64,000 nt of DNA from Escherichia phage FL04: the sequence record PP358550. One strand, given 5' to 3'. Both the position numbers and the translations under genes were made by a program. The stretch's first letter is position 1; each line of letters starts with the position of its first letter. The notes beneath the pieces are model-generated. The model was not told where the DNA came from and did not search any database. It was given only the letters and a program-made list of their open reading frames with translations. Shown piece after piece: positions 435 through 60,704 of this stretch.

Positions 435-869
435 ATGAAAAAGTTGATGGCTACATTTCATGATATGCGAGATCTACCAGGTTTAAAACATGTCGATTTT
501 CCTGTTACTATGGAAGTGTCGGAATATGACGGTTATCATGATATTCTGTTCATTAAAAATACTGAGTTTATCCGCTTAGGCGCTAAACCTGCTGTGCTAT
601 ACCCAGAAGGAAACCGGACAGCGGTCAGAAAAACAAATTCTGTTAAATTGTCATTTAGTTCAGATGTTGGCTTGGAACCCGCTTTCGGATATACTCCGGT
701 CGAGATCACAAAATCGAATACTTCTTTCGTGAAAGTTGGAGAGAAAACGCATATTTCAACTATGCCGAACGGTGCACAATATCTATGGTCCGATTTCTGC
801 CAGCGTTATGAGCGTTTATCATGGGCTACCCGCTTATGGTGTGTTGAGTATAAGGAGATCACAAAATGA
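435..869 (+). CDS. hypothetical protein
   Basis: Track ORF 408..869 trimmed to ATG 435 after GAGGAA RBS. Confidence 0.55.
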   Translation: MKKLMATFHDMRDLPGLKHVDFPVTMEVSEYDGYHDILFIKNTEFIRLGAKPAVLYPEGNRTAVRKTNSVKLSFSSDVGLEPAFGYTPVEITKSNTSFVKVGEKTHISTMPNGAQYLWSDFCQRYERLSWATRLWCVEYKEITK

Positions 870-1114
870 TCACCGGATATATTCCATATTCAACGACAAA
901 ACACATTATCGGATTTGAAAACATAGAAAAGTCTTGCTTTCCTCTCAAGGTTGAAGTAGACTTTATTACAGCGAACGGGTGGGCTTACGTTACCGTAGAA
1001 GAAATGAAGCGCATTGGTTGGGAAAATTGCATACACCTACCGCATCTTATCCTAGATGTTCGCGCTGGTGAAATTGATATTGATGGAAAGATCTATGGAG
1101 ATAATGTAAAATGA
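866..1114 (+). CDS. hypothetical protein
   Basis: ORF with AAGGAG RBS; stop/start overlap with neighbours typical of phage early operons. Confidence 0.5.
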   Translation: MITGYIPYSTTKHIIGFENIEKSCFPLKVEVDFITANGWAYVTVEEMKRIGWENCIHLPHLILDVRAGEIDIDGKIYGDNVK

Positions 1115-1314
1115 AAATTAAAATTGAAATTTTTGACGATGGTGGATATTCTTTCATGAAAGGTGTTAAACTTCCTATCATCGTGGAAGGCCGACCGTAT
1201 GGGCATGATTATGTTGTTGAAACGCAGGAATTACAAAAAGCTGGAGTACCGATTAAAGGTTATTCTCCTGAGTATAAATGGTGTTTTCTTAGCAAAGAAG
1301 CCTGGGAAGTGTAA
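1111..1314 (+). CDS. hypothetical protein, small tandem paralog family member
   Basis: 67 aa; shares MKIxIEIxD..GY(S/T)FM..VKLPIIVEGRP...WCF pattern with next ORF. Confidence 0.55.
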   Translation: MKIKIEIFDDGGYSFMKGVKLPIIVEGRPYGHDYVVETQELQKAGVPIKGYSPEYKWCFLSKEAWEV

Positions 1315-1332
1315 TCAATTGAGGATTATATT

Positions 1333-1590
1333 ATGAAGATTGAAATTATTGACCGTGCTGGGTATACTTTCATGGAAAAAGTTAAACTTCCTATCATTGT
1401 TGAAGGCCGCCCCTTATGTCAAGGATTTATGATAAAGACCAGAGAACTACGAAATGCGGGTGTTCCTGTTGAATCATGTTTCAGTGATGATTATGAATGG
1501 TGTTTCAGTGGTTTGCGTGCATATAAAGTAAAAGAAGCACGAAAAGCATCATGGTTTACTCGCTTTAATAACTGGTTGAGGAAACTGTGA
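1333..1590 (+). CDS. hypothetical protein, small tandem paralog family member
   Basis: 85 aa; GAGGATTATATT-ATG start; paralog of 1111..1314. Confidence 0.6.
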   Translation: MKIEIIDRAGYTFMEKVKLPIIVEGRPLCQGFMIKTRELRNAGVPVESCFSDDYEWCFSGLRAYKVKEARKASWFTRFNNWLRKL

Positions 1591-6065: not shown

Positions 6066-6094
6066 TTGACAATAAGAAATGGGAGTAGTAAAAT
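6066..6094 (+). promoter_or_regulatory. sigma70-type promoter with GGGAGTA/TACTCCC dyad around -10
   Basis: TTGACA 6066-6071, spacer 17, TAAAAT 6089-6094; palindrome 6081-6100. Confidence 0.6.
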
Positions 6095-6125
6095 ACTCCC
6101 ATCTAATCAAGAAGGAGAATCAACA

Positions 6126-6976: not shown

Positions 6977-7005
6977 TTGACATGATGAAACGGGAGTAGT
7001 AAGAT
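6977..7005 (+). promoter_or_regulatory. sigma70-type promoter with GGGAGTA/TACTCCC dyad
   Basis: TTGACA 6977-6982, spacer 17, TAAGAT 7000-7005; palindrome 6992-7011. Confidence 0.6.
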
Positions 7006-7036
7006 ACTCCCATCTAAACAACGAGAGGATTATATT

Positions 7037-8215: not shown

Positions 8216-8239
8216 CATGCGAAGGGAGTATGCTATAAT
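8212..8239 (+). promoter_or_regulatory. sigma70-type promoter with GGGAGTA/TACTCCC dyad
   Basis: TTGACA 8212-8217, spacer 16, TATAAT 8234-8239; palindrome 8224-8245. Confidence 0.6.
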
Positions 8240-8269
8240 ACTCCCACTTAACAACGAGAGGATTATATT

Positions 8270-8808: not shown

Positions 8809-10671
8809 ATGGAAAAACTAATCAAAGACATTACAGAGATCGCAACGGGTAAAGAAAACGAAGTGAGCAAAGAGAACGCGAACAAAGACGCGCGAACATT
8901 CCCGACACGTCGAGATCTGATTGCTGGCGCTGTGTCTAAACAGATTGCTAAAACCGTGTTACCTGAGCACATCTATAAAGCGCATGTAGACGGTGATATT
9001 CATTATCATGATATGGATTATGCACCAGCTATGCCGTTTACTAACTGCTGTCTTGTTAATCTCAAAGACATGTTAGAGAATGGTTTTAAATTGGGTAGCG
9101 CACAAATCGAAAGTCCGAAATCAATCGGCGTTGCTTGTGCTGTAACCGCTCAAATTATCGCACAGGTGGCAAGTCATCAATATGGCGGGACCACAATTGC
9201 AAACATCGATCAGGTTTTAGCGCCATACGTTGAGAAAACATATCATAAACACCTTGCTGATGCCGAAACCTACGGAATCAAAGCTGATACTCTCTATGCA
9301 CAAGAGAAGACAGAAAAAGAAACGCTAGACGGGTATCAAGCGTTGGAATATGAAATCAACACTTTGTTCTCCACCAACGGTCAAACGCCTTTTGTGACTT
9401 TAACCTTTGGTATGGGTACTAGCTGGGAAGAAAAACTGATTCAGAAAGCGATCCTGAAAGTTCGAACTAAAGGTTTAGGTAAAGATGGTATAACTCCGGT
9501 GTTTCCTAAGCTGGTGATGTTCTTAGAAGAAGGATTAAACCTTAAACCGGAAGATCCGAACTACGACATTAAGCAACTTGCATTGGAATGTTCTAGTAAG
9601 CGTCTTTACCCTGATTATATCTCTGCGAAGAATAACCGTAGTATCACTGGATCTAGTGTTCCGGTTAGCCCGATGGGTTGTCGTAGCTTCCTGGGTGTGT
9701 GGCATAATGAGAAAGGCGAAGAAGTATTAGACGGACGTAATAACTTAGGTGTTGTGACTCTGAATCTTCCGCGTATTGCCCTTATTGCCGCGCGTCGTGC
9801 TGGTAAAGCGTCTGTAATGCGCAGAATTGAGCTATTCGAACAAGAGCTAGCTAATCGTATGCCTATTTGCTTTGATGCGCTCATGAGTCGCGTAGACGCT
9901 TTAAAAGGGGCTAAAGCCAATGTTGCTCCGGTGCTGTATACAGAAGGTGCATTTTTCCGTATTCATCAAAACGATGAAATTTTGGAAGTGCTGAAAGATG
10001 GTCGCGCTAGTATCTCTCTTGGATATATTGGTTTACATGAGGTATTGAGCGTCCTGTTTGGTGTTCATCCGTTTGATTCGGAAGATGCGCAGCGATACGG
10101 TAAACATATTCTTAAGATCTTGCGTCATTATACTGAAAAATGGAAGGACGAAACCGGACTTGGGTTTAGTCTTTACGGTACGCCAGCCGAGAGCCTTTGC
10201 TATCGATTTAATCGACTGGACCGAGAGCAATTTGGTATTGTTAAGGGTGCTACCGATAAAGACTGGTACACCAACTCATTCCACCTTGACGTAGACCGGA
10301 AAGTCACTCCATTTGAGAAAATCGACTTTGAGAAAGATTATCACTGGCTGGCGTCCGGTGGCATGATCTCTTATGTTGAGTTCCCAGACATGAAAAACAA
10401 CCTGAAAGGTCTTGAAACTGTAGTGGACTATGCAATGGATAAATTGCACTACTTCGGTGTTAATACTCCTTCTGATGTGTGTCATGTATGCGGGTCTACT
10501 AAGGAAATGAGAGCGACCGAGTTTGGTTTTGTTTGTCCTGATTGCGGAAATGATAATCTGGAAAAGATGAATGTTATCCGTCGCGTTAGTGGATATCTTG
10601 GATCTGTTGATCTGCGTCCATTTAACCACGGGAAACATTCCGAGATGGTAAACCGCGTTAAGCACATGTAA
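8809..10671 (+). CDS. nrdD: anaerobic ribonucleoside-triphosphate reductase
   Basis: 620 aa; C-terminal Zn ribbon (CHVCGS...CPDCG) and glycyl-radical motif RVSGYLG. Confidence 0.95.
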   Translation: MEKLIKDITEIATGKENEVSKENANKDARTFPTRRDLIAGAVSKQIAKTVLPEHIYKAHVDGDIHYHDMDYAPAMPFTNCCLVNLKDMLENGFKLGSAQIESPKSIGVACAVTAQIIAQVASHQYGGTTIANIDQVLAPYVEKTYHKHLADAETYGIKADTLYAQEKTEKETLDGYQALEYEINTLFSTNGQTPFVTLTFGMGTSWEEKLIQKAILKVRTKGLGKDGITPVFPKLVMFLEEGLNLKPEDPNYDIKQLALECSSKRLYPDYISAKNNRSITGSSVPVSPMGCRSFLGVWHNEKGEEVLDGRNNLGVVTLNLPRIALIAARRAGKASVMRRIELFEQELANRMPICFDALMSRVDALKGAKANVAPVLYTEGAFFRIHQNDEILEVLKDGRASISLGYIGLHEVLSVLFGVHPFDSEDAQRYGKHILKILRHYTEKWKDETGLGFSLYGTPAESLCYRFNRLDREQFGIVKGATDKDWYTNSFHLDVDRKVTPFEKIDFEKDYHWLASGGMISYVEFPDMKNNLKGLETVVDYAMDKLHYFGVNTPSDVCHVCGSTKEMRATEFGFVCPDCGNDNLEKMNVIRRVSGYLGSVDLRPFNHGKHSEMVNRVKHM

Positions 10672-11863: not shown

Positions 11864-11892
11864 TTGACGGGGATCGCGAGATCCCCTATACT
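11864..11892 (+). promoter_or_regulatory. sigma70-type promoter with GGGGATCGCGAGATCCCC palindrome in spacer
   Basis: TTGACG 11864-11869, spacer 17, TATACT 11887-11892; two GATC sites. Confidence 0.6.
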
Positions 11893-13083: not shown

Positions 13084-13569
13084 ATGAAATGGGAAGAAGG
13101 TAAGACCTATGCGTTGGTTGGCGAATACGAAAAGCGTATTTTGCGTGATTGTTGGAGTTACGAACAAAGACCTAATATTGATGGTATGTTTACATATCTA
13201 GATAAACCATTTACTGTCGCTACGGTAGACCGTTGGGGTAATGTGCGTTCAATCTATAATCACGAAGGGGATTATATTAGTTCTATCGATATTGGTGATA
13301 ATATATGGTTTTCCGATGGTGACCGAGCGTGCTTCAAAGAAGTTTTATTACCTGGTCATGAATATGATCTAATAGACCTTCTCAAATTGGCGATGGATAA
13401 TTATAAAATTCGCTTTGAATGCAAATCACATGCGGCTATCGGTGCTAACGCCTTGCGTCATATCTCCAGTTTTGAAGAGTTGAAAGATTTTCTTGACAAA
13501 ATGCCGGAAAGAGTGCAAGCTATACAGGAAGCCGAGAAAGCATTAAACGAACTTGATAAAATCGGTTAA
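13084..13569 (+). CDS. hypothetical protein, multi-copy domain family
   Basis: MKWEEGKTY...DRACFKEV; tandem paralog. Confidence 0.6.
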   Translation: MKWEEGKTYALVGEYEKRILRDCWSYEQRPNIDGMFTYLDKPFTVATVDRWGNVRSIYNHEGDYISSIDIGDNIWFSDGDRACFKEVLLPGHEYDLIDLLKLAMDNYKIRFECKSHAAIGANALRHISSFEELKDFLDKMPERVQAIQEAEKALNELDKIG

Positions 13570-19284: not shown

Positions 19285-19313
19285 TTGACGCGGGGAGAAA
19301 TCCCCGTTATACT
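19285..19313 (+). promoter_or_regulatory. sigma70-type promoter with CGGGGA-GAAA-TCCCCG palindrome in spacer
   Basis: TTGACG 19285-19290, spacer 17, TATACT 19308-19313. Confidence 0.55.
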
Positions 19314-28846: not shown

Positions 28847-28890
28847 GGCGGGTGTTGGGTGACGATACCCGCCAATGTGAGAAATATATT

Positions 28891-33570: not shown

Positions 33571-34599
33571 ATGATTTACTACGCAGATTATGAAATAGCG
33601 GAAAAAGCCATATACGGCGAACGAAATTTTAAACGGTTGCATACTAGCTCATTTACGCTGGTCTGTAGTTGTCCGATCTGCGGTGACTCAAAGAAAAATC
33701 ATACTCAAGCGCGATTCCGTATCTATACCTATAAGGATAGTTTGCGTTGCGGCTGTTTCAACTGTAACTACAATCAGCCGTTAGGTGAATTTCTCAAACA
33801 GTATAAGCCGGACCTATTCAGGGAATGGCTTATGGAACGACGGAAGGAACAAGGCGACCACAAGAACACCACGTTCAAGCCACTGAAAAAGGTAGAAAAG
33901 CCGGAGATTAAGAAAGTGCAAACATTGCCTTTCTGCGAGAGATTAGATACTCTTCCGGCTAATCATCCTATAATAAAGTATGTCAGTGATCGCTGTATTC
34001 CTCACGATAAATGGGATCTTCTGTATTTCACTAGAGAATGGCAAAAGGTAGCAAATCACATTAAGGCTGATACTTTCAAGAATCCACAACCTGAACCGCG
34101 TTTAGTGATTCCTATCTTTAACCGCGAGAACAAGATAGAATCCATTCAGGGGCGAGCATTGAGAAAGGATTACGGAAAGACCAAATATATGACGATTAAA
34201 ACTCATGAGTTAGCGAGTAAGGTCTATGGTCTTGAACGCGCCGATCCGAGTAAACCAGTGTATTTCTTAGAAGGTCCGATCGATTCATTGTTTATTGATA
34301 ACGGGTGTGCAATTACTGGCGGTACTTTGGGATTAGATGAAATCCCTTTCCCAGACCAGCGAGTGTTTGTACTTGATGCGGAACCACGGTCTGCCGATAC
34401 AATGCACCGACTGGAAAAGTTTATCAATGCAGGTGAAAAGATTGTATTGTGGGACCGTTGCCCGTGGCATTCTAAAGACGTTAACGCCATGATTCAGGAC
34501 GAGGGCGCTACACGCGACCAGATCATGGAATATATCAAAGAGAACACCGTACAAGGTCTGATGGCTAAAATGCGGTTTATGAAATATTGTAAATTTTAA
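33571..34599 (+). CDS. 61: DNA primase gp61
   Basis: N-terminal zinc ribbon CPICGDSKKN...C..C; Toprim-like region; 342 aa as in T4. Confidence 0.9.
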   Translation: MIYYADYEIAEKAIYGERNFKRLHTSSFTLVCSCPICGDSKKNHTQARFRIYTYKDSLRCGCFNCNYNQPLGEFLKQYKPDLFREWLMERRKEQGDHKNTTFKPLKKVEKPEIKKVQTLPFCERLDTLPANHPIIKYVSDRCIPHDKWDLLYFTREWQKVANHIKADTFKNPQPEPRLVIPIFNRENKIESIQGRALRKDYGKTKYMTIKTHELASKVYGLERADPSKPVYFLEGPIDSLFIDNGCAITGGTLGLDEIPFPDQRVFVLDAEPRSADTMHRLEKFINAGEKIVLWDRCPWHSKDVNAMIQDEGATRDQIMEYIKENTVQGLMAKMRFMKYCKF

Positions 34600-34613
34600 T
34601 TAATGAGGTGAAT

Positions 34614-35132
34614 ATGTCAGAATTTAATTCTTGTGCTGGTCTGGTTAACGAAAAAGATATTAACGCGGCTATCGCCGCATATCATCACGCTATTGCAGAA
34701 GGTAAAGATCCGTTTCAGGTGATGCTAGAAATGCAAACTGGTTTGCAGGTTGCATTATCAGAAAAATTTGATTGGGTCCCAAATCCAACTAAGCTAGAGA
34801 CTTGCGGTGAAATGCTGGATTGGATGCAGCGGATGGATGACGCTATCGCAGACGAAACACGAGAGCTTTACACATCGCTGGGTGGAATGTCCAATGGTAA
34901 AGATGCAAGTGCAATCTGGAAAATGTGGAAAAAGAACCACGGGGAAGCGCGAGCGCGTAAATTCTCTGAACTGTCACCGGAAGATCAGCTTGAAGTGAAA
35001 TTTGAATTTGTGGATGCGATCCACTTCATTCTGTCAAAGATGATCCCGCTGGGTATTGACGCTCAAGAACTCTTTATTCTGTACTATCTGAAAAATGCTG
35101 AAAACTTCGCCCGTCAAGAACGCGGCTACTAA
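34614..35132 (+). CDS. 56: dCTP pyrophosphatase (MazG-like) gp56
   Basis: ATG 34614; all-alpha NTP-PPase pattern (E..E..D, LYYLKNAENFARQ); position after 61 as in T4. Confidence 0.7.
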   Translation: MSEFNSCAGLVNEKDINAAIAAYHHAIAEGKDPFQVMLEMQTGLQVALSEKFDWVPNPTKLETCGEMLDWMQRMDDAIADETRELYTSLGGMSNGKDASAIWKMWKKNHGEARARKFSELSPEDQLEVKFEFVDAIHFILSKMIPLGIDAQELFILYYLKNAENFARQERGY

Positions 35133-35139
35133 AAATTAG

Positions 35140-35168
35140 TTGACACTACTCTATAATGGTTTTATTAT
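35140..35168 (+). promoter_or_regulatory. sigma70-type promoter
   Basis: TTGACA 35140-35145, spacer 17, TATTAT 35163-35168. Confidence 0.45.
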
Positions 35169-35201
35169 GCCTCCCGTCGAAAGATTGGAGGCTTTTTTAT
35201 T
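35169..35201 (+). terminator. hairpin plus T-tract that also contains the RBS of the downstream gene
   Basis: GCCTCC-N12-GGAGGC followed by TTTTTTATT; GGAGG lies in the 3' arm. Confidence 0.5.
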
Positions 35202-35705
35202 ATGCAATTTACACCAGAAGAACTTAACATCATTGATGAATTGATGAACTCTAAAGAAAATATCGATATGTCGATCCTTAATGGATTGATCGAAAAGACT
35301 GAACGGTTAGTGCATCATGAAGCCTTGTATCGCGGTGTGAGCAAAAGAGAAGGCCGTAAGCTGGATACCTTAATTGTAGGTGATTCTTTCGTTGTAGATC
35401 GTCCTATGAGCTTTACGCCACTGCAATCAACAGCAGAGGACTTTGCAACCGATGTTTATGCAACAGGAAAGATTATTGCAATAAAACCTACCAAGCCTTG
35501 CATGAATTATTACGAACATGCTATTGACCGAGTGGTGTCTAAAGAGTATGACAATCCGACTACTCGACTGTCTTTGTATGCTATGTTGGCAGATGAGCGC
35601 GAGTGCATATACAAGACAGGGACGACCATGATCCTTGATGAGATCGAGGAAGTTTACGCGTGTAATGGCGATCTGATAGAGATTTACAAATTTTCTTTAA
35701 TTTAA
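35202..35705 (+). CDS. hypothetical protein, candidate ADP-ribosyltransferase (ModA/ModB-like)
   Basis: 167 aa; R (LYRGVS), S-T (QSTAED) and E-x-E (DEIEEV) motifs in ART-like order; lies in the 56-dda interval where T4 encodes modA/modB. Confidence 0.5.
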   Translation: MQFTPEELNIIDELMNSKENIDMSILNGLIEKTERLVHHEALYRGVSKREGRKLDTLIVGDSFVVDRPMSFTPLQSTAEDFATDVYATGKIIAIKPTKPCMNYYEHAIDRVVSKEYDNPTTRLSLYAMLADERECIYKTGTTMILDEIEEVYACNGDLIEIYKFSLI

Positions 35706-35766: not shown

Positions 35767-36522
35767 ATGAAACTGTTTGCTTTTAAATCTAACGAAGAAT
35801 TGGCGCTGGTTGTTTTCCGGCTGAACTCTATCATGGCTGGCGCTTCACGTCGCAACAAAGACTTCTCTATGAGCTTAGTCACTGTTCGTAACATTTACCG
35901 TCAGACTCATTGTGTCTATTCAGGTGAGGCTTTCGGTGAAGGTGATGACGGACTCTCCTTAGAGCGCATTGATTGCAATCTGGGATATGTTGATGGCAAT
36001 GTAATTCCGGTTAAACTGAAATACAATTCTTTCCGTGGCAATCACACTATCGAATCTCTTAAAGAGATCCAAGAACTAGGAACTAACGGTAAACTTTCTG
36101 ATGATGAAATTGCCCTACGTGCGAAGTACATCGAGTGGATCGAACTTAACGAGAATCGCATCAAAAATCAGGAAATGGCAATCGAAGAAAAGAAATTAGC
36201 AATCGAGCGCCACAAAAAGCACAACGAACCGGAGAAAGCAGAGGCAGCCGAGCGAGCGATTAAAAATACTCTCTTCCGTATGGAAGAACGTTATCAGAAA
36301 ATTGCAGATCTCAAGCAAGCCCTTAGCGAAATCAACAAGAAAGAAGAAAAACTTAAGGCTATTGCAAACAATACCGAAATCGTGCTAAAATATACCAGCG
36401 TTTTGATTGAATCTCTTTCTAAGTATGAGAACTTAACGCCAGCACAAAAAGAACGCGTGAAATACGGGCTTCCGATTGATGCGTCGTGGATTGAATTGAT
36501 GAAAGCGAAGGTAGGTTTATAA
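35767..36522 (+). CDS. hypothetical protein (position and size comparable to T4 srd)
   Basis: 251 aa; C-terminal half predicted coiled coil. Confidence 0.5.
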   Translation: MKLFAFKSNEELALVVFRLNSIMAGASRRNKDFSMSLVTVRNIYRQTHCVYSGEAFGEGDDGLSLERIDCNLGYVDGNVIPVKLKYNSFRGNHTIESLKEIQELGTNGKLSDDEIALRAKYIEWIELNENRIKNQEMAIEEKKLAIERHKKHNEPEKAEAAERAIKNTLFRMEERYQKIADLKQALSEINKKEEKLKAIANNTEIVLKYTSVLIESLSKYENLTPAQKERVKYGLPIDASWIELMKAKVGL

Positions 36523-36836
36523 TGCATGTATTTGCTGTATGTTATCGTGATAAAGACGGATTCTTTCAATACTCAGTGGACGCGAAAGGTCGCGTCCTAA
36601 CTTGCGAAACACATGATGCTGCGTTAGCGTCAATGTGTGATCAGATAGATTATTGTGAGAGTCTATTGGCGGGTGAACCGAAATACAAGGTTGTACCTAA
36701 ACGAAAATTTGGCATAATCCGGTCTTCTGAAATTGTTCGGGATGGTATAGAATATAAAATTCCTGAATATGAAAAAGAACGGGTACGGCGAGAACTCAAT
36801 ACTATCTGTGTTCGCAAGGTGAGGATTTTAGGATAA
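36522..36836 (+). CDS. hypothetical protein
   Basis: ORF immediately upstream of dda. Confidence 0.5.
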   Translation: MHVFAVCYRDKDGFFQYSVDAKGRVLTCETHDAALASMCDQIDYCESLLAGEPKYKVVPKRKFGIIRSSEIVRDGIEYKIPEYEKERVRRELNTICVRKVRILG

Positions 36837-38227
36837 TGAGCAGAGTATTAACTTTCGATATGTTAACAGACGGGCAAAAACATGCTTTTGATGTTCTAAT
36901 GAAACGCATTGAACAAAAGAAGCATACAACTGTCCGGGGTGCGGCGGGTACTGGTAAAACCGCAATGATGAAATTCATTGTTCAGGAAATGGTCCGCCGT
37001 GGTGTAACTGGTGTGGTTTTGGCAACGCCTACCCACCAGGCTAAAAAAGTTTTGAGTAAAGCGGTAGGTCGTCAAGCATTTACTTTACATGCACTACTGC
37101 GACTAAACCCGACCAACTATGAAGATACTCAAGTATTTGAGCAAAAAGATACTCCTAAGCTAGATGATGTTCAGATCATCATTGTTGATGAAGCGAGTAT
37201 GGTCGATAAGAAACTATTTGATATTCTCATGAAGAGTATCAACGGTCGAATTGTTATTATTGCCGTGGGTGATCTGTACCAGTTACGACCAGTTGATCCG
37301 AGCGGTGCAACGTCGATCTCTCCTTTCTTCACCGATGAAAGGTTTCAGAATGTAGAACTTACAGAGATTAAACGATCTAATGCGCCAATAATTGATGTGG
37401 CGACCGCTGTCCGTAATGGTAAATGGGTATTCGAAAAGCAGTGCGGTAACGAGGGTGTATTCCATAGCTCAACTCTGCCGGAGTTTATGAAGCATTATTT
37501 CGAAACCGTTAAAACGCCGGAAGACCTTCTAGAAAACCGTATTCTGGCCTACACTAACAAGAGCGTCGAAAAACTCAATGAAATTGTGCGTAAGCGCGTT
37601 TATAACACCGATGAACCAGTGATTGTAGATGAAATTCTGGTTACTCAGGAACCATTGATCGAATATCTGCGAGATGAACGCGGGAAGAAGATTCCCAATG
37701 TTATTTTTAACAATGGTGAGATGATCCGAGTTAAAGAGGTCATCCCGCGTGAATTTACATTACGTTGCACGGGTGTAGATCCGCAACCAGTTTTAGGATA
37801 TACTCTGAAAGTGGAAAGCGTCGATGATGACGAAGACAAAGAAATCCTAAATCAGAAAGTCGGTTTAGATGCAGTCGGAATAACTACAGATAAACCAGAT
37901 TTAGTAGAAATCAACATTCTGACAGAACAACGTCAGAAGAACATTTTCTCTATCTATCTGAATACGGTCGCCGGACAATATCGCGAAATGAAGAAAGAGA
38001 ATCCGAATTTTAAACCGGATTGGGATTCTTTCTGGACGATGAAGCGTATGTTCTTGAATGTAAAAGCATTACCAGCTTGCACTATTCATAAGTCACAAGG
38101 AATCAGCGTAGACCGCGTGTTCCTGTATACCCCTTGCATGTGTACAGATAATGTTGACTTTGAATTGGCAATGCAGTTATTATATGTGGGTGTTACCCGT
38201 GCACGGTATCGTGTAGACTATATTTGA
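36836..38227 (+). CDS. dda: SF1 DNA helicase Dda
   Basis: Walker A GAAGTGKT, strong similarity to T4 Dda across the length. Confidence 0.95.
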   Translation: MSRVLTFDMLTDGQKHAFDVLMKRIEQKKHTTVRGAAGTGKTAMMKFIVQEMVRRGVTGVVLATPTHQAKKVLSKAVGRQAFTLHALLRLNPTNYEDTQVFEQKDTPKLDDVQIIIVDEASMVDKKLFDILMKSINGRIVIIAVGDLYQLRPVDPSGATSISPFFTDERFQNVELTEIKRSNAPIIDVATAVRNGKWVFEKQCGNEGVFHSSTLPEFMKHYFETVKTPEDLLENRILAYTNKSVEKLNEIVRKRVYNTDEPVIVDEILVTQEPLIEYLRDERGKKIPNVIFNNGEMIRVKEVIPREFTLRCTGVDPQPVLGYTLKVESVDDDEDKEILNQKVGLDAVGITTDKPDLVEINILTEQRQKNIFSIYLNTVAGQYREMKKENPNFKPDWDSFWTMKRMFLNVKALPACTIHKSQGISVDRVFLYTPCMCTDNVDFELAMQLLYVGVTRARYRVDYI

Positions 38228-39492: not shown

Positions 39493-39595
39493 GTCATATA
39501 CTTGACAATCACTCAATTTTTAATATGATTGTTGCAGCCGTCTTTGTGGCGGTTGCAGTAAGTTATGGTTATGTTATGTATTGGAGAGAGAAAAA

Positions 39596-42526: not shown

Positions 42527-42555
42527 TTGACACTGGATCGGGGATATATCATAAT
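42527..42555 (+). promoter_or_regulatory. sigma70-type promoter with GGGGA/TCCCC dyad
   Basis: TTGACA 42527-42532, spacer 17, CATAAT 42550-42555; GATC at 42536-42539. Confidence 0.5.
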
Positions 42556-42585
42556 GTCCCCATCGAAAACAAAAGGTTGACTTAT

Positions 42586-49878: not shown

Positions 49879-49907
49879 TTGACACTGAATAATGGGAGTA
49901 GTAATAT
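49879..49907 (+). promoter_or_regulatory. sigma70-type promoter with GGGAGTA/TACTCCC dyad
   Basis: TTGACA 49879-49884, spacer 17, TAATAT 49902-49907; palindrome 49894-49913. Confidence 0.6.
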
Positions 49908-49938
49908 ACTCCCATTCCAAACAAAAGGAGAATCAAAG

Positions 49939-50897: not shown

Positions 50898-50926
50898 TTG
50901 ACGTAAAGATAAGGGAGTAGTAATAT
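50898..50926 (+). promoter_or_regulatory. sigma70-type promoter with GGGAGTA/TACTCCC dyad
   Basis: TTGACG 50898-50903, spacer 17, TAATAT 50921-50926; palindrome 50913-50932. Confidence 0.6.
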
Positions 50927-50955
50927 ACTCCCATACCAAACGAAAGGAGAATCAC

Positions 50956-51178: not shown

Positions 51179-51207
51179 TTGACAGGGGATCGCCGATCCC
51201 CTATAAT
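51179..51207 (+). promoter_or_regulatory. sigma70-type promoter with GGGGATCGCCGATCCCC palindrome as spacer
   Basis: TTGACA 51179-51184, spacer 17, TATAAT 51202-51207; two GATC sites. Confidence 0.6.
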
Positions 51208-51401: not shown

Positions 51402-51430
51402 TTGACATCGGATTAAGGGAGTAGTAAGAT
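51402..51430 (+). promoter_or_regulatory. sigma70-type promoter with GGGAGTA/TACTCCC dyad
   Basis: TTGACA 51402-51407, spacer 17, TAAGAT 51425-51430; palindrome 51417-51436. Confidence 0.6.
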
Positions 51431-51464
51431 ACTCCCATCAAGACAAAACACTGAGGAATATATT

Positions 51465-60696: not shown

Positions 60697-60704
60697 TATT
60701 TATA
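60697..60704 (-). promoter_or_regulatory. T4-type late promoter TATAAATA
   Basis: Exact TATAAATA on minus strand about 34 bp upstream of gp36 ATG. Confidence 0.6.

Follow-up and report, generated by a model that had tools for sequence, protein, structure and literature searches.

A PeSL-type cassette with overlapping promoter, terminator-like hairpin and Shine-Dalgarno sequence upstream of a modB-like gene in Krischvirus phages

In the genomes of phages RB49 and phi1, 51 and 52 PeSLs (promoter-early stem-loops), respectively, have been described as cassettes of a strong sigma70-like promoter, an A/T-rich upstream tract and a stem-loop proposed to end transcription arriving from upstream (Arbiol et al. 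2010, PMC2839356). The stem-loops fall into five positional subclasses, one of which lies downstream of the −10 hexamer, and a polyG...polyC stem is described as "frequently" or "generally" seen (PMC2839356); a Gn/Cn stem is therefore typical of a PeSL, not obligatory. The stem-loop of PeSL211/210 was comparable to rrnB T1 in its reduction of lacZ expression, PeSL206/205 gave high lacZ expression (about 13,000 Miller units), and crossovers at PeSLs were mapped between the −10 hexamer and the Shine-Dalgarno sequence (SD) or ATG (Arbiol et al. 2010, PMC2839356). Translation, ribosomes and SD occlusion are never raised in the PeSL papers (PMC2839356; Comeau et al. 2014, PMC4122927), and modB is not mentioned in the main text of Arbiol et al. 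(2010).

Occlusion of the SD is known from phage T4. Long transcripts of the genes e, soc, 49 and I-TevI hide the SD in a helix, whereas RNA started at a promoter that lies within the 5′ strand of this helix leaves it free (Uzan & Miller 2010, PMC3014915). A different arrangement is found at modB of phage RB69, where a terminator (13477–13490) is followed by the early promoter Pe:13466 (Nolan et al. 2006, PMC1524935). For RB49, the same study listed a TransTerm terminator named "modB<--56" (9430–9453, confidence 100, 10 bp) and an early promoter, Pe:9496 (9446–9496), with an HMM score of 11.3, most other early promoters scoring 20–46; C is preferred at −3 to −1 of the RB49 early promoters (PMC1524935).

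We analyzed a 64,000-nucleotide stretch of Escherichia phage FL04 (sequence record PP358550), referred to below as the window. The region considered here is 98–99% identical to many genomes of the genus Krischvirus (the RB49/phi1/GEC-3S/JSE group of T4-type "pseudo-T-even" coliphages). The gene order is 61-56-modB-srd-dda, and all neighboring genes lie on the plus strand. In the RB49, phi1 and GEC-3S records, gene 56 is labeled gp56 dCTPase and the orthologue of the gene at 35202–35705 is labeled modB. By tblastn, the product of the latter gene was approximately 29% identical to T4-type ModA/ModB, and the phage collection held no match to it in the range of 60% to 95% identity. Its residues R44 (in YRG), S70-F-T72 and E132-R-E134 form a pattern that resembles the R-S-ExE signature of ADP-ribosyltransferases. 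T4 ModA and ModB are early, toxic enzymes of about 200 aa, and the 167-aa protein encoded here is shorter. In T4, the slot downstream of gene 56 is occupied by soc. Within the 69 bases ahead of the modB-like gene, an early promoter, a terminator hairpin and a ribosome-binding site (RBS) overlap one another. The features of the locus are as follows.

33571–34599, plus strand: primase gp61
34608–35132, plus strand: gene 56, dCTPase/dUTPase (Pfam dUTPase_2, PHROG 173), the end of the upstream unit that feeds the hairpin
35130–35139, plus strand: A/T-rich, UP-element-like tract TAAAAATTAG (TAA-AAATTAG), read directly, which holds the gene 56 stop codon
35140–35145, plus strand: −35 hexamer TTGACA, invariant in the 13 Krischvirus records, the IMG/VR contig L016 and three metagenome contigs
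35160–35170, plus strand: first copy of the 11-nt direct repeat TTTTATTATGC, over the −10 hexamer
35163–35168, plus strand: −10 hexamer TATTAT after a 17-nt spacer; the hexamer is invariant, and spacer bases differ in JSE, phi1 and L016
35169–35174, plus strand: 5′ arm of the hairpin, GCCTCC, anti-SD-like
35175 (C)–35176 (G), plus strand: predicted transcription start from sigma70 geometry, 7–8 nt past the −10 hexamer, at the junction of the 5′ arm and the inner stem
35176–35185, plus strand: inner stem GUC/GAU with a GAAA (GNRA) tetraloop; G35176-U-C pairs with G35183-A-U
35187–35192, plus strand: 3′ arm of the hairpin, GGAGGC, of which 35187–35191 (GGAGG) is the SD
35193–35201, plus strand: T6ATT, terminator U-tract and SD-to-AUG spacer; the T-run is at 35193–35198 and measures 5–7 nt among relatives
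35195–35205, plus strand: second copy of TTTTATTATGC, over the end of the T-run and the ATG
35202–35705, plus strand: ModB-like ADP-ribosyltransferase gene, 167 aa (PHROG 832, RNA polymerase ADP-ribosylase, E = 1.4e-20)
35767–36522, plus strand: Srd
Listed between Srd and Dda, plus strand: Y01A-family protein
36836–38227, plus strand: Dda helicase

A first-pass annotation, made from the letters of this DNA, had described a sigma70-type promoter, TTGACA-17-TATTAT, at 35140–35145 and 35163–35168. This promoter is present there; it matches the consensus at 11/12 positions, is intergenic and points at the modB-like gene. It has the features of its family, namely the A-tract, a G/T before TTGACA and a C-rich −3 to −1 region, and the 5′ arm of the hairpin doubles as the C-rich promoter discriminator. 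The tract TAAAAATTAG fits the A-rich consensus located 5′ of the other early promoters of the window; JSE and G37-3 lack the A-rich upstream tract. In a leave-one-out weight matrix of the window's early promoters, the promoter scored 22 bits and ranked 14th of 26. Strong sigma70-like sites as a whole are enriched about ten-fold on the coding strand, with 58 sites on the plus strand of the window versus 5 on the minus strand. Three points count against the promoter: the low HMM score obtained for its RB49 counterpart, the C/G at +1 in place of the A that is usual among the window's early promoters, and the GC-rich discriminator.

Other routes of expression were also considered. The sequence TATAAT at 35152–35157 could serve as an alternative −10 hexamer, but it has no −35 hexamer at 16–18 nt and no TG extension, and is absent in JSE, and we regard it as incidental. 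A second promoter using the downstream TATTAT (35198–35203) was rejected, as its −35 match is just 1/6. A late-promoter reading of the cassette is ruled out, since no late promoter lies near it and the sole TATAAATA motif in the 64 kb is at 60697 on the minus strand. Across the whole window, this single occurrence compares with 5.4 expected. As there is no late motif nearby, and as RB49-type phages have neither MotA nor a middle mode (PMC1524935), the sigma70 promoter is the sole visible expression route for the gene.

Sigma70 geometry places the predicted start at 35175/35176, the first bases past the 5′ arm of the hairpin, in agreement with the earlier suggestion that transcription would begin inside or after that arm. 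The RB49 promoter model Pe:9496, which is 51 nt long, corresponds to positions 35126–35176 of the window, and its 3′ end thus falls on 35176.

An inverted repeat, GCCTCC-N12-GGAGGC, had also been noted straight after the promoter, and its arms are found at 35169–35174 and 35187–35192. The intervening stretch is 12 nt long, as described, and is itself structured: the inner GUC/GAU stem and the GAAA tetraloop, which had gone unmentioned, lie within it, and C35175 and U35186 form a 1 × 1 internal loop between the outer and inner stems. The complete hairpin, GCCUCC-C-GUC-GAAA-GAU-U-GGAGGC (35169–35192), starts at the first base past TATTAT and thus abuts the −10 hexamer. The isolated 24-nt hairpin folded with −13.8 kcal/mol in RNAfold, and the centroid of the in-context ensemble was the same hairpin at −15 kcal/mol. 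With a GC-rich stem of 6 + 3 bp, a GAAA loop and U6 directly after the stem, it has the anatomy of an intrinsic terminator. Compact hairpins, defined as those of −12 kcal/mol or lower within 26 nt, number 40 on the plus strand; a T-run follows 6 of them, and the uninterrupted run of the modB-cassette hairpin is the longest. No other plus-strand terminator consisting of a hairpin and a T-run was found between 30.2 and 42.1 kb. The hairpin was missed by a simple terminator scan because the scan was limited to loops of 3–8 nt; a separate, crude terminator scan produced many false positives on the minus strand and served for ranking alone. The folding z-score of the 98-nt region was weak (−1.4), a value that is uninformative about the 24-nt hairpin because the flanks are unstructured. 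A search for an Rfam family covering the cassette returned only a chance match to isrN on the other strand (E = 0.47). Counting does not exclude a chance overlap of the signals, because the 69-nt spacer forces them together; conservation and family context, not counting, carry the argument against chance.

The GGAGG at 35187–35191, which was already recognized as the 3′ arm of the hairpin and as the SD of the gene starting at 35202, is the only SD-like sequence before that ATG. It lies 10 nt before the ATG, within the 8–10 nt typical of the window. To describe its accessibility, we surveyed 30 promoter-gene units of the window and calculated the unpaired probability of the SD in the read-through context and in RNA begun 7 nt after the −10 hexamer. 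For the modB cassette, read-through RNA gave 0.00 and the own transcript 0.59; when the 3′ context was lengthened, the former stayed at 0.00 and the latter was about 0.40. The predicted cost of opening the stretch from the SD through AUG+3 was 13.2 kcal/mol in read-through RNA versus about 5 kcal/mol in the own transcript. In upstream-initiated RNA, the AUG was approximately 0.8 unpaired, although the SD was fully paired. An SD accessibility of 0.00 in the read-through context was obtained for only one of the 30 units, the modB cassette. When the 5′ end of the folded RNA was varied, RNAs starting at position 35171 or later had an accessible SD, and the SD was locked only in those starting at 35170 or earlier. 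The latter would have to begin within 2 nt of the −10 hexamer, where sigma70 holoenzyme cannot initiate. Folding thus bears out both halves of the earlier proposal, that the own transcript would be free of the hairpin and that read-through RNA would fold it and mask the RBS. The predicted SD of the own RNA is only about 40–60% unpaired, which counts against the mechanism.

These data led us to propose that the locus is a PeSL-type cassette with its hairpin right after the −10 hexamer, and that practically all expression of the modB-like gene probably comes from its own early promoter. RNA initiated at upstream promoters (e.g., 31255 or 33009) would run through genes 61 and 56 and contain both arms. 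The GNRA-capped hairpin of −14 to −15 kcal/mol, followed by U6, would then end most of this RNA just before the start codon, and in RNA escaping termination the only SD would be locked in a stem of approximately −14 kcal/mol, resulting in poor translation. The own sigma70 promoter would start RNA at about 35175/35176, past the 5′ arm; because the start lies after this arm, the own RNA would lack the hairpin and would therefore be neither terminated nor masked. The gene would be expressed essentially from its own promoter alone because read-through RNA either terminates or is masked. The first-pass annotation had called expression "strictly dependent" on this promoter; we infer such dependence from the arrangement of the signals, and the interpretation given at that time is supported as the best explanation of the locus. 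If termination is efficient, the masking of the SD adds little and may be incidental. Confinement to the own early promoter would plausibly limit modB synthesis to the first minutes of infection.

Both signals had been predicted at this locus by independent annotators, namely the authors of the GEC-3S, Makalu and TB34 records and Nolan et al. (2006), which supports the promoter and terminator calls. The GEC-3S GenBank record has a promoter at the cassette, the Makalu_001, Makalu_002, Makalu_003 and TB34 records have a terminator, and in the Makalu_002 and Makalu_003 records an RBS is annotated inside the terminator. The RB49 terminator at 9430–9453 corresponds to positions 35169–35192 of the window, and Pe:9496 overlaps it by 8 nt. 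The cassette is, accordingly, a compact member of a published class. It shares with PeSLs the phage group, a sigma70-consensus early promoter, an A/T-rich tract, an adjoining stable stem-loop, and a 3′ end bearing the SD and ATG, as well as a link to module exchange, which is visible in an HNH gene junction at the −35 hexamer in JSE and G37-3 and in a conservation island in L016 (both described below). It differs from a typical PeSL in its stem, which is GCCTCC/GGAGGC and not Gn...Cn, and from the usual PeSL in that the hairpin straddles the predicted start and does not stop short of it, has a canonical U6 tract and provides the SD with its 3′ arm. We conclude that the modB cassette is a PeSL of the rarest positional type, with every attribute of the class except the Gn/Cn stem. 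The masking of the SD and the start-site-straddling geometry appear to be undescribed so far.

The position of the hairpin was compared with those of the other RB49 terminators by re-analysis of the tables of Nolan et al. (2006). An early promoter adjoins 13 of the 41 terminators. Eleven of these 13 lie wholly upstream, at −88 to −52 from the 3′ end of the promoter model, and one overlies the −10 hexamer (−21 to −2). Only modB<--56, at −7 to +16, straddles the start site (1/41). As at RB69 modB and these 11 RB49 sites, the upstream unit would be terminated and the next gene restarted from its own early promoter; at those sites, however, the terminator precedes the promoter, whereas in the modB cassette the order is inverted and overlapping, with the promoter first.

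The comparison with T4 is similarly divided. As in e, soc, 49 and I-TevI, the SD helix is predicted only in RNA started upstream, and RNA from the own promoter is predicted to be devoid of the 5′ strand. In the T4 genes, the internal promoter is late (TATAAATA/gp55) and expression is delayed, whereas the promoter of the modB cassette is an early sigma70 promoter, and the device would restrict expression to early RNA from that promoter. A further difference from the T4 genes is that the modB-cassette helix is also predicted to be an intrinsic terminator. The cassette would thus work like the T4 SD-occlusion family, but would not be a member of it in the temporal sense.

The stems were identical in 18/18 homologous sequences, with no covariation. 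The sequences with identical stems came from 13 Krischvirus records, three IMG/VR contigs and a flank-anchored metagenome scan, in which 14 stretches yielded 3 true homologues, all with the identical hairpin. The 13 Krischvirus records agree in the −35 and −10 hexamers, the stems, the loop and the SD; their differences are confined to spacer bases (JSE and phi1) and to the length of the T-run (5–6). In L016, where the ModB protein is 74% identical, the cassette has three spacer changes and a T7 run, and its hairpin differs at a single base, U35186 to C, in an unpaired position of the internal loop. This conservation could stem from recent ancestry or from a role as a recombination linker, and not from selection on RNA structure.

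One alternative is that the conservation is mainly at the DNA level, with the PeSL acting as a "linker" at which modules are shuffled by recombination, either homologous or through microhomology. Such a role would be compatible with a role in RNA, and we consider it possible, if rather doubtful, as the main cause of the conservation. The mapped PeSL crossovers mentioned above would be in keeping with it, as would the mosaic pattern of L016. The nucleotide identity of L016 to the window is 77% in gene 56 and 71% in modB, but 93% in the intervening 70-nt spacer; L016 686–835, corresponding to positions 35088–35236, forms an island of 93–97% identity centered on the cassette amid diverged genes. 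This pattern is suggestive of recombination at cassettes. Downstream, in srd, the identity of L016 returns to 92%. A second indication comes from JSE and G37-3, in which gene 56 and the cassette are separated by an HNH homing-endonuclease gene in reversed orientation.

JSE record (L003) 524–1444, minus strand: reversed HNH gene, annotated
G37-3 record (L004) 515–1444, minus strand: reversed HNH gene, annotated

In both phages the HNH gene is joined to the cassette exactly at the 5′ edge of TTGACA, which fits PeSL-mediated shuffling. The cassette has been kept in these phages in spite of having no adjoining co-oriented gene, which fits what is expected of a working promoter. By the annotation, approximately 77 nt at the 3′ end of gene 56 are shared with the HNH gene of JSE and G37-3. 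A different HNH gene is located directly 5′ of gene 56 in the records of G2494, TB34 and phiS (L008, L012 and L013, positions 1–144), in the place held by primase gp61 in the other genomes.

A third indication is the direct repeat TTTTATTATGC, whose two perfect copies, 35 nt apart, bracket the hairpin core. The 64 kb contain no further copy (two observed, 0.14 expected), and all relatives have both. The repeat may be the footprint of a recombination event behind the inverted promoter-then-terminator order; alternatively, it may reflect the convergence of two AT-rich signals. Against recombination as the main explanation, the hairpin is single-copy in the window, no other copy being detected at up to 3 mismatches, and therefore offers no homology to other cassettes. 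In addition, the GNRA loops on the sense strand and the one-sided T-run point to a function in RNA.

A fuller version of the proposed mechanism can be put forward tentatively, and we give it somewhat less than an even chance. The cassette would be a purpose-built terminator that internal initiation bypasses: one 24-nt hairpin would stop the replication-gene transcript, keep read-through RNA from being translated, and provide the promoter discriminator as well as the SD. Synthesis of a potentially toxic ADP-ribosyltransferase would thereby be confined, and TTTTATTATGC could be the footprint of the recombination event that gave rise to the inverted order. The ancestor would have had the classical terminator-then-promoter order, such as the RB69 arrangement, and the enzyme would be made only while unmodified host sigma70 polymerase fires early promoters.

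A simpler possibility is that the hairpin is only an insulating terminator, as in the general PeSL role, and that its GGAGG arm results from fitting a GC-rich stem into a 69-nt spacer, the masking being without regulatory consequence. PeSL stem-loops have been put forward as terminators, a role demonstrated for one of them (PMC2839356); most PeSLs of the window leave the SD untouched, short intergenic regions make signals overlap, and a strong terminator would leave few read-through RNAs to be masked. We nevertheless consider this explanation unlikely, given that the fully sequestered SD and the start-straddling terminator are each peculiar to modB among the window cassettes and the RB49 terminators, respectively. 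Moreover, the classical order was available, as it is used by RB69 modB and by the other 11 RB49 terminators that lie wholly upstream of an adjacent promoter.

It is very unlikely that the promoter is unused and the gene is expressed by read-through, with the hairpin serving as a regulated attenuator or as a translational switch that a factor, or ribosomes finishing gene 56, would open. The low HMM score of Nolan et al. (2006) and the location of the gene 56 stop codon, 36 nt from the hairpin, would be in line with such a switch. However, the promoter has an 11/12 match and the optimal 17-nt spacing, with invariant hexamers around a spacer of variable sequence, and in JSE and G37-3 no co-oriented gene lies directly upstream of the cassette. 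The gene 56 stop codon is also too distant for ribosomes terminating there to open the stem, and folding predicted no alternative pairing partner for the 5′ arm. We consider it most improbable that the GGAG of the SD is a target of the RegB endoribonuclease which the hairpin protects in some transcripts: RegB cleaves the GGAG of early SDs, such sites are protected when they lie in secondary structure, and RB49 has regB, but strong RegB sites have the sequence GGAGRAYARAA with an A-rich 3′ side (PMC3014915), whereas here GGAG is followed by GCUUUUUU, which is U-rich.

The cassette leaves the current understanding of phage gene regulation unchanged. If the proposed mechanism of expression from the own promoter is confirmed, the cassette would represent a natural part of approximately 60 bp that combines transcriptional insulation with translation dependent on the promoter of origin, and the principle known from the late promoters of T4 e, soc, 49 and I-TevI would then apply to early promoters as well. 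PeSLs, which have hitherto been discussed only as promoter/terminator and recombination modules, would gain a translational layer, and the result would suggest that the expression of the ModB-like ADP-ribosyltransferase requires tight temporal confinement.

The window contains, on its plus strand, dozens of early promoters with a GC-rich inverted repeat in the spacer or around the −10 hexamer, i.e., PeSL cassettes. Spacer hairpins (GGGGATC..GATCCCC) are found, for example, at 2171–2189, 11869–11886, 19290–19307 and 51184–51202, and hairpins with the −10 hexamer in the loop (GGGAGTA..TACTCCC) at 6079–6102, 6992–7011, 8224–8245 and 42540–42561, as well as at 49891–49916, 50913–50932 and 51417–51436. 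In both of these types, the predicted start sites lie just past the hairpin. Sense-oriented GAAA (GNRA) tetraloops are present in many of the strongest plus-strand hairpins (3745, 10674, 17081, 18179, 35168, 36573 and 54463), an orientation which argues that the hairpins act in RNA and not as DNA cruciforms. Two further hairpins, at 28848–28873 and 39531–39559 (−17 kcal/mol), come directly after the −10 hexamers of promoters with 11–12/12 matches (28819 and 39502); these also straddle the predicted start sites, with no T-run and with the SD outside the hairpin.
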